Of a DNA stretch of 64,000 nt, positions 13,554-17,688 are shown piece after piece (position 1 is the stretch's first letter; each line of letters begins with the position of its first letter). Origin of the DNA: Candidatus Altimarinota bacterium. Its GTDB lineage: Bacteria; Patescibacteriota; Gracilibacteria; BD1-5; UBA2023. The stretch is from positions 2,928-66,927 of the forward strand of contig JAYRRZ010000060.1 of assembly GCA_041909865.1 (NCBI GenBank). Direction: 5' to 3'. Made by a program: the position numbers and the translations under genes. The notes below the pieces were generated by a model. That model saw only the letters and a program-made list of their open reading frames with translations. It had not been told where the DNA came from and searched no databases.

Positions 13554-14810
13554 TTAGTTTGCCATCAGGATGCTGCCGCCGGTCGTGCGAGCCGCGTTGC
13601 TGCCGCCGTTGACGATGGCGTAGCGGTAGTAGCGCCACTTCGGGCTGACCACGGCTTCCGCAACATAGCCGCCCCCGGAAATGTTTGTCGCCGTGATGGA
13701 CTGGATAACCCGGAACGTCGAGTTGTCGCGGCTGGCCTGAATCTGAAGCGTAAACGCCACATCTTGCTCGGCCATCACGCGGAACTCCTTCGCGTTTGTC
13801 GATGCACTTGAAAACGCAGAACCTGACGATGTTGCCGTAACATCGCGGGCTGTGGATGTAAATGTGCTGTTAGCGGTAAGTGCCGCTGACGTGTCGTCAT
13901 ACCAGATGCCGGGGGCAAATACGCAACCAGCTCGCGATGTGCTTTGAGTCAATGCAGCAGTCGTAAATGCCGTTACCTGCGCGGCGGAATAGGCGAGCAA
14001 AACTCCGGCAGTACCCGAACCATATGTCGTGCATTTGACTTGAATATGGGTGACTCCCGGAGGGATGTCAAAAACGATCGGTTGGTTTGCTGTGGCAACA
14101 TTGGGCAAATAACCGCCAGTCGATAGGTTTTTCAAATAGCCGGGCGCGATCCACGTCGCGGCATTATCAAACGATATTTGCAACGTAGCGGTTTGCGAAA
14201 ATGTCCCGTAAATATAAAACGTACAGGAACGCGCCCAACCGGGCACAGCAAGTCCTGCACCGCCAGCAGGAAACGTGTCGTTTAGCGCGGCTAAAGCACT
14301 GGCGTTAGATGCTGAATACCCGTCCGGAGTACGGAAATACTGAATGCCCGTGTTATCCGTCAGCAATGTCCGCTTCAGCCCGCCCCCATCAACCCCACTC
14401 ACCCGCACCGCTTGATTTGTCGGTGCTACGCCGTCAGCGGACACGCCGCCGACATAGAACACCCCGTCGCTCGCCCCGGTGACGCTGAGCGAGTTTGCCG
14501 CCGTCTTGGTTCCCTTGAGCGACAGCCAGAAATCCCGCATCCAACGCAAGAACCCGTTCGTCGTGCTCGCCCCGGTGTCGCCAGCAGCCGCAGCAGATGC
14601 GCCGCCGATGCTCGCAAGTTCCGTCACGATGTCGGTGTTTGTCTTGCTCCCGCTCCCCCGCAACGCATCGCGCAATGCAGATAGCGCGATGTCCAAGTTG
14701 TCCGTTTTCGCCTTGATGAGTTCCTGCGTCGCCTCTCCAGCGACTTCGCTTCCGTCCGTGCGGGTAACAGGTATCGTGCGTCCGGTCATGTCATGCCTCC
14801 ACGGCAACAA
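13554..14810 (-). CDS. tail fibre / receptor-binding protein (two beta-sandwich-like repeats)
   Basis: 418 aa, Ala/Gly/Ser/Thr-rich, two similar C-terminal modules (..TATLQISFDNAATW.. and ..FTLQIQASRDNSTF..); high-GC; follows another fibre gene with a 20-nt overlap. Confidence 0.55.
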   Translation of the reverse strand: MLPWRHDMTGRTIPVTRTDGSEVAGEATQELIKAKTDNLDIALSALRDALRGSGSKTNTDIVTELASIGGASAAAAGDTGASTTNGFLRWMRDFWLSLKGTKTAANSLSVTGASDGVFYVGGVSADGVAPTNQAVRVSGVDGGGLKRTLLTDNTGIQYFRTPDGYSASNASALAALNDTFPAGGAGLAVPGWARSCTFYIYGTFSQTATLQISFDNAATWIAPGYLKNLSTGGYLPNVATANQPIVFDIPPGVTHIQVKCTTYGSGTAGVLLAYSAAQVTAFTTAALTQSTSRAGCVFAPGIWYDDTSAALTANSTFTSTARDVTATSSGSAFSSASTNAKEFRVMAEQDVAFTLQIQASRDNSTFRVIQSITATNISGGGYVAEAVVSPKWRYYRYAIVNGGSNAARTTGGSILMAN

Positions 14811-16017
14811 GCCACATCAGGGCCGCGCCGTCATATAGATATTGAGTTCGTTGGTTGGCGTTGGTCTCGTCCGCCGTGACGACATAAAGCCGTGGCTCAG
14901 CGAGGCCGGTCGTGTTGATGTCGGCGAAATGCGTGACGGTGACGGCCTCCAGCGAGGACGTGCCGGGATCGGCAGGGGTATCAACAATGATGAGGTTGGT
15001 CTTGCCGCTGATGAGCTTGACGTACTGCCCGGCCCGCGTGGTCTTGCCGTGGAAATAGCCCCCGGCGCTGACCTCGTACCAGTCGTTGTCGAGAGCGCCA
15101 ACCGGCAGGGTAGCGTTTGTTATCGTCCCAAAACCACTCCGCCCGCCTGTAGTATCTGAAAGGTTAAAGCTGACCGTCGAGGCAGCAAAAACCACCGTGC
15201 TGGAGGCGGATTGCGTCAACACCATCAACTTGATCGTGTCCCCCGGCGGGAATGATCCGACATCCAGCGTAAACGGGCCGACCGTGGTCGAGCCGACTTG
15301 TAGCGTGATGTCGTTTGTTGTTGGATCAAGGCGCAAGTAAGACACATCACCGGCAACCACCGCCCCCGCGTTTCCGCCGGTAATGGTCCCGCTGTTGTAG
15401 ATAACGAGGCCGGCGTACGGATACGCGAGCACGCCGGAGGCTTCGACGGCAATTGCTGCATATGTGGGGTTTGCTGGCGTATTGCCTGCGATAAAATCCC
15501 TGACATCCGAAATGGTTGCCGACGAGTTGCACAGAACGAGATAGTGCAAGTTGACGGTATCTCCCGGCGTGTACGCTGGCATCGGCATGGATGCCTGCAT
15601 GACATTTGTTCCGATGGTTAGCGCCGATGTTTCAACACCTGCTATGTACGGTATGCCGACGCCGGGAATTGTGCCGTCAGGCGTCATGGTCGTGGGCGTG
15701 TACGTTGCCGCTTGGGACGCTGATGGCGCGGCAGGAACAAACACGCCGGAGGACATGTCCCACTCTCCCTTATATTGCCCAGAATAAGCAATATCTACAG
15801 AAACATCTCCAGAAGAATCGGTTCCACTAATACCATCTCCAGTAAAATTCAAAGATTTAATATTAGCGGGAGAAGATAGATTAACCCCATTTTCTTTAAC
15901 TTGGATCAAACTTCCATCTTGACCGGCATCCCCTTTTGCTCCACTAGCAAATGTACTCGCTTGCGGGATTTCAAGCGTAATTTCTTGAGAAACAATATTC
16001 AGAATTGTCTTAGCCAT
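14791..16017 (-). CDS. tail fibre protein, mosaic (low-GC N-terminal anchor + high-GC distal part)
   Basis: 408 aa; N-terminus with a collagen-like GAKGDAGQDG triplet run; composition switches from AT-rich to GC-rich near 15770. Confidence 0.6.
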   Translation of the reverse strand: MAKTILNIVSQEITLEIPQASTFASGAKGDAGQDGSLIQVKENGVNLSSPANIKSLNFTGDGISGTDSSGDVSVDIAYSGQYKGEWDMSSGVFVPAAPSASQAATYTPTTMTPDGTIPGVGIPYIAGVETSALTIGTNVMQASMPMPAYTPGDTVNLHYLVLCNSSATISDVRDFIAGNTPANPTYAAIAVEASGVLAYPYAGLVIYNSGTITGGNAGAVVAGDVSYLRLDPTTNDITLQVGSTTVGPFTLDVGSFPPGDTIKLMVLTQSASSTVVFAASTVSFNLSDTTGGRSGFGTITNATLPVGALDNDWYEVSAGGYFHGKTTRAGQYVKLISGKTNLIIVDTPADPGTSSLEAVTVTHFADINTTGLAEPRLYVVTADETNANQRTQYLYDGAALMWLVAVEA

Positions 16018-16508: not shown

Positions 16509-16892
16509 TTACACAGCTTTGTTATTATCCACTACAAGAGAATATGTGAATTTGGCTGGAGCGGGAGAAAGATCATCACTTTCATCTTCATCGTTCTTAT
16601 TATCCACGCCAGCCTTTTCAAGCTGCTTGTCCAGCAATTCCAGCTTTTTAGCCAGTTCCGTTTGGCGATCCACTTCCTTAATCATATTCGATGTAGTTTG
16701 AACAATCCATGTAGCAGCTTTCATGCGAGACGTGGTGTCAGCCTCTTCATCCCGCATAACATCCTTGATAAAATTGATGGCGTATTCAGCCTCTTTACCA
16801 AGGATTTTAGCAAACTTCGTGAGGTCTGCCTTGCCCAACACTTTAGCACGTTTCACCGAAGGGACTTTATCGGCTACAATTGGAGCACTCAT
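16509..16892 (-). CDS. hypothetical protein (possible small terminase / DNA-binding; weak)
   Basis: 127 aa, basic N-terminus, coiled-coil, acidic tail; SD AGGAGAA; first ORF after the long leader; the TerS idea rests only on a SRMKAATWIV-type helix and is weak. Confidence 0.5.
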   Translation of the reverse strand: MSAPIVADKVPSVKRAKVLGKADLTKFAKILGKEAEYAINFIKDVMRDEEADTTSRMKAATWIVQTTSNMIKEVDRQTELAKKLELLDKQLEKAGVDNKNDEDESDDLSPAPAKFTYSLVVDNNKAV

Positions 16893-16966
16893 GCTATTCT
16901 CCTATTTATTTTTCTAATTTATTATTGTTACGTTTATACGTTAAATGTGAAGAAGTAACGTAGAAT

Positions 16967-17046
16967 TGGAACACTTCTTGAGGGACTCGAACCCACATTG
17001 CCAAGCGTCACGCTATAGGTATCCTACCGTTAGATGAAAGAAGTGT
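16967..17046 (-). ncRNA. tRNA-like element (acceptor, D and T arms, encoded CCA; no canonical anticodon arm)
   Basis: minus strand ACACTTC(TT)..ATCT-AACGGTA-GGAT..GTGGG-TTCGAGT-CCCTC..(AA)GAAGTGT-T-CCA; 7-9 bp acceptor stem, GG in D loop, TTCGAGT T-loop; the middle 23 nt only form AGCG-TGA-CGCT. Confidence 0.45.
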
Positions 17047-17659
17047 AATTATGTGCATAACTCTTCACCGCTACCTACGTTCGGGAGAGGATTCATGCTA
17101 ATAAGAAGGCCCAAAGATTTGCGCTTGCAGACAGAGGCGTATGGGCCAGATTCTTCAAAAACAATTAAACCTTAAAATTTTAGATAAATATACCACTTTT
17201 TCTAAAATTTTAATTAAAATAATCCCCACGTAAGCAGATGAGCCAAGAGGTGGGGGCCGTATTGTACGCGCAATACCCCAGTCTTACCGGCGACGAGGTG
17301 CTGCCATTCTTCTAGACCGTAGGTAAAGAAGAAACACCGCATGTAAAACTTTTAATAACCCCATGCTTGCTGCCCTATTAAGGATGAGCAGGAACTCCAA
17401 GTCCGCAGCGTTTGACAATACACCCATCCTGAGTGTAGCCTTGCTGAGCGGATCATTGCAAGGTCTTGAGTATTGTGCCACAGGATGCGAACCCTGCTTG
17501 CTGGCTTTACGACTCTCGCTAGGGAGAGTATCCAGCTTCTGTCACGCAGTAGTGTATCGCCTACACATTTTACACAATATTTGTGGGGTAGAACAATCGT
17601 CTAAAAATGTTAACAAACGTAACACTCAATGTTCGTCAGAACATTCCCCTACACTTCCA

Positions 17660-17688
17660 ATACTACTACACCTTTCTTATTTTGTCAA
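17660..17688 (-). promoter_or_regulatory. promoter of the conserved promoter-leader class, drives the 700-nt leader
   Basis: minus strand ATTGACAAAA (17688-17683), 17 nt, TAGTAT (17665-17660), then GGAAGTGTAGGGGA and hairpin AATGTTC-TGAC-GAACATT. Confidence 0.6.

Follow-up and report, generated by a model that had tools for sequence, protein, structure and literature searches.

A non-decoding tRNA relic and an abiF-motif-like RNA in a putative promoter-driven RNA island upstream of the packaging genes of a Felix O1-like phage

The DNA analysed here, a stretch of 64,000 nt (the window), belongs to an 80.4-kb phage contig binned with a Candidatus Altimarinota genome. A sigma-70-like promoter at 17688-17660 on the minus strand is followed by about 770 nt with no credible ORF, up to the ATG at 16892 of a 127-aa terS-like gene that is homologous to the small gene preceding terL in the related loci L003 and L034. 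In this group of ~80-kb Felix O1-like phages, the region separates the terS-like/terL packaging genes from a 75-aa gene of zinc-ribbon-like type. The features between the promoter and the terS-like gene are given below in the order of reading of the minus strand.

17660-17688, minus strand: sigma-70-like promoter (TTGACA, 17 nt, TAGTAT)
17629-17656, minus strand: initial transcribed box (12 nt, the same as in the terL copy) and 6-bp hairpin, from the comparison of the two copies
17340-17628, minus strand: W1, a GC-richer, ORF-free, lineage-specific segment
17275-17332, minus strand: M2, two conserved hairpins (17332-17308 and 17299-17275)
17215-17256, minus strand: M3, a G+C-rich stem-loop followed by a U-rich run, terminator-like
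17151-17214, minus strand: AT-rich spacer, 43 nt of which are absent from L025; it contains a weak promoter-like site (17206-17177)
17108-17147, minus strand: putative divergent abiF-motif RNA, with a U-rich tail to about 17100
17055-17098, minus strand: hairpin that separates the tRNA-like element from the abiF-like motif
16967-17046, minus strand: tRNA-derived element
16893-16966, minus strand: AT-rich spacer with a ribosome-binding site before the terS-like gene

The promoter scores 10/12 and is the top site within 1.7 kb, having a twin with the same exact pattern at 12938-12910, before terL. Both copies lead into the identical 12-nt transcribed box and then into a hairpin, the arms of which differ between the two places yet remain complementary, and TTGACA promoters are also found at the equivalent place after the 75-aa gene in the related phages. 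Two ORFs in the stretch below the promoter were rejected as genes: a 65-aa ORF in sense (minus strand), frameshifted by a 1-nt indel in L025, a close relative at 95% identity, and a 113-aa antisense ORF, whose start differs in L025; neither has a Pfam match. The GC content of the stretch is 0.48-0.50, against 0.35-0.41 in the flanks. An earlier note, made from the letters alone, had described a near-copy of the terL promoter and, below it, about 700 nt of GC-richer sequence without a credible ORF, all of which is borne out. Its description of these nucleotides as a single mRNA leader is misleading, since the corresponding region of the relatives is a mosaic of discrete RNA genes and two terminator-like hairpins lie inside the supposed leader. 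The abundance of stems that it saw there holds for GGCCCA..TGGGCC, which is real and abiF-motif-like, but not for the 5' 300 nt, which fold no better than shuffled sequences (z -0.79).

The search with TerL gave close relatives at 84-88% identity, and the 75-aa gene upstream of the promoter was found in 14 metagenomic loci and 5 IMG/VR loci (2 new records). The islands of these relatives carry between one and five tRNA genes, among which Leu(UAG), Pro, Leu(UAA), His, Thr and Met are represented, together with an abiF-motif RNA, a large structured RNA, small hairpin modules and several non-tRNA hairpin RNAs. The large conserved RNA (M1), of 236-450 nt with variable inserts, directly follows the promoter in nearly all relatives (L003 3685-3920, L007 5107-5524, L027 3267-3575 and L034 584-1033; also L036, L037 and L045). 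M1 has no Rfam match and is absent from the window and L025, and both of these also lack any decoding tRNA. M2, M3 and the abiF-like hairpin recur in L027, arranged as they are in the window, and this island homology indicates that the stretch is the phage's own version of a mosaic non-coding RNA island that would be driven by the promoter. Other searches added little: BLAST of the leader against 50,697 phage records gave no match, the 89 genomes of the bin's family gave AT-rich chance matches only, the 127-aa downstream protein had no match in IMG/VR, and the 75-aa protein had none in the genome collection.

The content of the island is reshuffled among the relatives, L023 keeping only the 3' fragment of a tRNA and L007 having its tRNA-Thr split by an HNH gene. 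In L007 (5655-6140, the same record as L035/L047), the tRNA-Thr homologue is interrupted inside the anticodon loop by ~420 nt, and because nearly all of this insert is a 131-aa HNH-type ORF, there is too little room for the core of a group I intron; the insert would be either a homing-endonuclease gene on its own, inactivating the tRNA, or an intron of an unusual type. An 88-nt tRNA-shaped gene missed by ARAGORN is present in L003 (4164-4251) and L002 (196-283). Its acceptor stem is perfect and carries ACCA, and it has a T arm and, with GUA (Tyr), a canonical anticodon arm. A local D arm is lacking; a stretch of 6 nt beyond the acceptor stem can pair with part of the long variable region. The island tRNA-Thr(UGU) of L003 (4702-4787) and L036 (3907-3997) is 83-91 nt long, and its extended variable arm makes it class II in shape, which is uncommon among Thr tRNAs; L026 and L031 have a normal tRNA-Thr of 73-76 nt at the equivalent place. 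Elsewhere in the window, a patch at 14500-15900 with a GC content of 0.55-0.60 is 35-50% mismatched against L025, between flanks that are nearly identical, which fits a swapped module.

Among the modules of the window, W1 (~290 nt) has a homologue only in L025, where it is nearly identical. It had no Rfam match in a local cmscan and no homology by nhmmer to M1, and its fold does not rise above shuffles on either strand. The two M2 hairpins are conserved as blocks of 80-85% identity in L007, L023 and L027; RNAalifold gives 17 pairs, 4 of them with compensatory changes, some of which are between the window and L025. M3 is kept in L007, L025, L027, L034 and L036, with changes that give G-U or extra pairs on the minus strand only; a simple scan overlooked it, its loop exceeding 8 nt. 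The hairpin at 17055-17098 folds at -13.1 kcal/mol (z -2.03), and no homologue was found for it.

The hairpin at 17147-17108 contains the GGCCCA..TGGGCC stem and resembles the abiF motif (RF03085; AbiFr; RCd22 of Clostridioides difficile prophages) in its 6-bp outer stem, GCCUCU loop start, 3-bp inner stem, CAAAUC-type 3' bulge and U-rich tail. It differs from these systems in being a single copy without an abiF gene, with a bulge 2 nt longer and a score of 18.6 bits with the Rfam model, under the gathering score of 37. Its positional homologues score 44.3 bits in L034, which is above gathering, and 28.7 bits in L027 and L031. A model (R1) built from six relatives, leaving out the window, L025, L032 and L034, has its best match in the 64-kb window at 17150-17099 (22.3 bits, E about 0.003), the next match having an E of 9.5. 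In a ten-copy alignment, itself fitted to the model, pairing holds for 98% of cells, 12 of the 19 pairs change on both sides, and slid controls reach at most 40% pairing. The Rfam model, R1 and this covariation together indicate that what had been noted as just another local stem is a divergent abiF-motif, antitoxin-like RNA. No Abi_2 (PF07751) gene was found in the whole assembly, phage contig included, and the abiF-like RNA of the window is therefore an orphan. [quoted passage not shown] Orphan abiF RNAs of phages are already in Rfam and have been listed, without interpretation, for lytic phages such as cyanophage S-CREM1 (PMC9964418); the window copy is a further example and not the first.

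The last module before the terS-like gene (17046-16967) descends from a tRNA. In a cmscan of 900 nt, the Rfam tRNA model (RF00005) matches 17044-16972 on the minus strand with 35.7 bits and an E of 1.2e-5, passing the gathering score of 29 bits. This match appears only in the local search; the speed filters hide it in whole-window and multi-locus searches, and the whole-window Rfam search at the gathering score does not report the element. ARAGORN at default settings finds no tRNA and no tmRNA in the window, and the element is the only tRNA-shaped item on the contig. Its parts are as follows.

17044-17038 (from 17046 in the 9-bp register), minus strand: acceptor, 5' strand
17035-17021, minus strand: D arm
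17019-17001, minus strand: aberrant 19-nt arm, with a UGA triloop at 17010-17008
16996-16980, minus strand: T arm
16979-16973, minus strand: acceptor, 3' strand
16969-16967, minus strand: CCA

The acceptor stem has 7 perfect pairs and two further flanking pairs, which extend it to 9 bp and are followed by U-CCA. The D stem has 4 bp, with A14, G18 and G19 in place, and the T arm has the loop UUCGAGU. All the nucleotides of the elbow are kept, including U8, A14, G18, G19, A21, the A15/U48 pair, G53-C61 and the UUCGA of the T-loop. The segment between A26 and the variable loop holds 19 nt, two more than the usual 17, and cannot form an anticodon arm of 5 bp and 7 nt. These nucleotides fold instead as 2 bp, a 3x1 internal loop, a perfect 4-bp stem and the UGA triloop; canonical-style anticodon stems reach 3 of 5 pairs at best, and relaxed ARAGORN offers only an 8-nt loop on such a stem or a 4-nt 'intron'. 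With no proper arm in this region and only artefactual ARAGORN models for it, the element cannot present an anticodon and hence cannot decode. The minimum-energy fold retains the 9-bp stem, and the fold energy of the element as a whole is no better than that of shuffles (z -0.8).

The tRNA-like element had been proposed in the earlier note, and its acceptor stem and D arm were read there as they are found here. The T arm stands with its canonical loop, except that the stem has one U-U mismatch. The encoded discriminator and CCA hold in the 9-bp register, one base past the stem, but not in the canonical 7-bp register, where G73 is followed by UUCCA and the CCA is displaced by 2 nt. The claim that no normal anticodon arm can form also stands, with 24 nt between the D and T arms and not 23. 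A normal tRNA hidden by an intron or an assembly error was looked for with relaxed ARAGORN, Rfam and the comparison with L025, and none was rescued. The CCA is encoded in all 41 tRNA genes of the host bin and in most tRNAs of the related phages, and an encoded CCA is thus the expected mature end. The 7-nt 5' strand of the acceptor is repeated at 16956-16950 (minus strand), 17 nt downstream of the CCA, and the repeat could pair with the 3' acceptor strand (16973-16979) in an alternative hairpin of -5.8 kcal/mol (z -2.4); it could be a switch, a duplication scar or chance.

The only other copy of the tRNA-like element is in L025, where it is identical. There it is part of an 850-nt block with only two mismatches, in two genomes whose divergence is patchy, and L025 is for this reason uninformative on selection or covariation. 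An exact-pattern scan of IMG/VR for the T arm and acceptor found none. A search for a donor covered the bin's 41 tRNAs and those of the related phages and gave no convincing relative, the closest signal being a common 16-nt T arm shared with tRNA-Gly (E 0.9). An origin from tRNA-His is possible in view of the GUG in the loop region and an 8-bp stem; the C-1:G73 pair is the reverse of the His identity pair. A tRNA fragment of the attP type was rejected by reasoning, both halves of the tRNA body being present. The tmRNA- or Y-RNA-like module offered in the earlier note also found no support: there is no Rfam match to tmRNA, Y RNA or YrlA at E<=10 in the local cmscan, and the only tmRNA call of ARAGORN, obtained at a 70% threshold, is a spurious permuted one on the opposite strand.

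The link between the phage and the bin is doubtful because their genetic codes differ. The bin is TGA-recoded: read with the standard code, ORFs of at least 150 codons account for 47% of its DNA, its tRNA(UCA) has U73 and an acceptor stem resembling that of tRNA-Gly, and its only release-factor gene contains in-frame TGA. The phage contig follows the standard code, with 78% coverage and TGA ending 28 of its 75 long ORFs. Either the phage is mis-binned or there is a conflict of codes between phage and host. AbiF is found in 2 of the 88 other genomes of the bin's family (89 searched, including the assembly itself), a count of little weight given the doubtful host link. One Abi_2/AbiF gene with five in-frame TGA codons (L050, G022:C9:640-1239) is in a genome of the bin's genus, and AbiF thus exists in that recoded lineage.

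It is proposed here, with a probability of about one half, that the stretch is an RNA island whose terminal, non-decoding tRNA relic is kept as punctuation for RNase P and 3'-end processing. The lineage of the window would have lost all decoding tRNAs of the island, leaving, from 5' to 3', W1, the two conserved hairpins, the terminator-like hairpin, the abiF-like hairpin, another hairpin and the tRNA-derived element. We infer that the late-type promoter drives transcription and that some transcripts end at the internal hairpins, after which RNase P would cut at the 5' side of the tRNA-like element and the 3' end would be trimmed at the CCA; the cleavage would free the upstream small RNAs, whatever their roles may be, and give the mRNA of the packaging genes a defined 5' end. 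In the relatives, a real tRNA would do the equivalent job at this boundary; in L003 and L007, tRNA-Thr immediately precedes the first gene downstream. The features that tRNA-processing enzymes read, namely the acceptor, the D/T elbow and an NCCA after the 9-bp stem, are all kept, and the defects are only in the anticodon arm, which is itself still a neat rod. On the other side, the coaxial stack of 9+5 bp is 2 bp longer than that of usual RNase P substrates, the CCA is off by 2 nt in the 7-bp register, the T stem has its U-U mismatch, the upstream terminator-like hairpins may stop most transcripts before the element is reached, and the element is known from a single lineage, with a fold no better than chance. 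Of the four options offered in the earlier note, a degenerate tRNA and a processing signal fit best.

The same relic could also be a dead tRNA pseudogene, the last remnant of a lost tRNA cluster, with no role and with the rest of the island working without it. This is a tentative possibility, favoured by the real tRNAs that occupy this place in the relatives, by the recombination that reshuffles the island (the 3' fragment of L023 and the split tRNA of L007), by the silence of default ARAGORN, by the lack of covariation and of spread beyond one lineage, and by the element being the sole tRNA-like item on the contig. Decay does not explain well why the damage is confined to the anticodon arm with elbow and acceptor positions all intact, and by a rough estimate the two extra pairs with an in-register CCA would arise by chance about 1 time in 1000. 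The intact body, unusable in translation, could otherwise serve as a counter-defence mimic, acting as a decoy or sponge on some host factor, for instance a nuclease or toxin directed at tRNA, that recognises tRNA bodies. It could act together with the adjacent abiF antitoxin-like RNA, found 62 nt upstream, and the island that holds both has a strong promoter. That a phage can mimic a type III antitoxin with an RNA is known from pseudo-ToxI (PMC3475682). Such a role is quite unlikely for the tRNA-like element, which has no known target and no conservation beyond one lineage, and adjacency alone is weak evidence; the more specific decoy for anticodon nucleases suggested in the earlier note fits poorly, as these enzymes require the anticodon loop that is missing here. 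Least probable by far is a decoding tRNA with an odd anticodon arm, in which an 8- or 9-nt loop would read a quadruplet or a mini-intron would be removed. Relaxed ARAGORN does give GUGA in an 8-nt loop, or Val(GAC) once 4 nt are taken out, but in either model only 3 of the 5 stem pairs are standard, and the alternative 4-bp stem with its triloop is perfect and buries the candidate anticodon; we know of no bacterial mechanism that removes 4-nt introns.

The island as a whole may also be an anti-defence RNA cassette, an unlikely alternative that builds on analogy with pseudo-ToxI of phage PhiTE, a phage-borne mimic of a type III antitoxin RNA demonstrated at the bench. The orphan abiF-like hairpin, made early and abundantly from the strong promoter, would bind and silence an AbiF-type HEPN RNase of the host as pseudo-ToxI does ToxN, and the tRNA mimic would be a second decoy for the same or another tRNA-directed defence, or a stabilising or processing handle. 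Both are antitoxin-like RNAs on a phage without the toxin that would neutralise an abortive-infection RNase; they differ in the toxin family, which is ToxN for pseudo-ToxI, and the role suggested for the window RNA is hypothetical. If the cassette exists, the turnover of modules among the related phages would be the mark of an arms race in which small RNAs are the weapons.

Similarly to the tRNA clusters of Felix O1-like and T4-like phages, the island is a promoter-driven array of small RNAs near late genes, and the relatives have ordinary tRNAs at the locus. The T4 tRNA cluster also yields stable non-tRNA RNAs, species 1 and 2. Unlike those clusters, the phage of the window is without a decoding tRNA, and its remaining element has a triloop rod in place of the anticodon arm and a 9-bp acceptor. 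For processing punctuation, the reading preferred here, the nearest likeness is elsewhere: at the 3' end of MALAT1 (mascRNA) and in the tRNA-like parts of the MHV68 TMERs, RNase P and RNase Z cut out the tRNA-like piece and thereby fix where the adjoining RNAs end. In both, as in the window, a tRNA-shaped, non-decoding module ends a longer non-coding transcript; these examples are eukaryotic or herpesviral and unrelated in sequence, and the corresponding processing in the window is a prediction. The mascRNA is described in bioRxiv 10.64898/2026.01.19.700226. The tRNA-like domain of tmRNA and the module of YrlA likewise combine an acceptor and a T arm without an anticodon loop; the element of the window differs from them in its full D arm and in having no G3-U70 pair, no tag reading frame and no Ro-binding stem.

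Both the tRNA-like element and the AbiF-antidote-like RNA are real and of kinds that have been seen before. The tRNA regions of phages are usually seen only as devices for codon supply. A lineage that has no decoding tRNA and keeps the promoter, the structured RNAs, the antitoxin-like RNA and a tRNA body suggests that such islands have roles beyond translation, for which the candidates are the punctuation of RNA processing and, possibly, an RNA-based counter-defence against AbiF.
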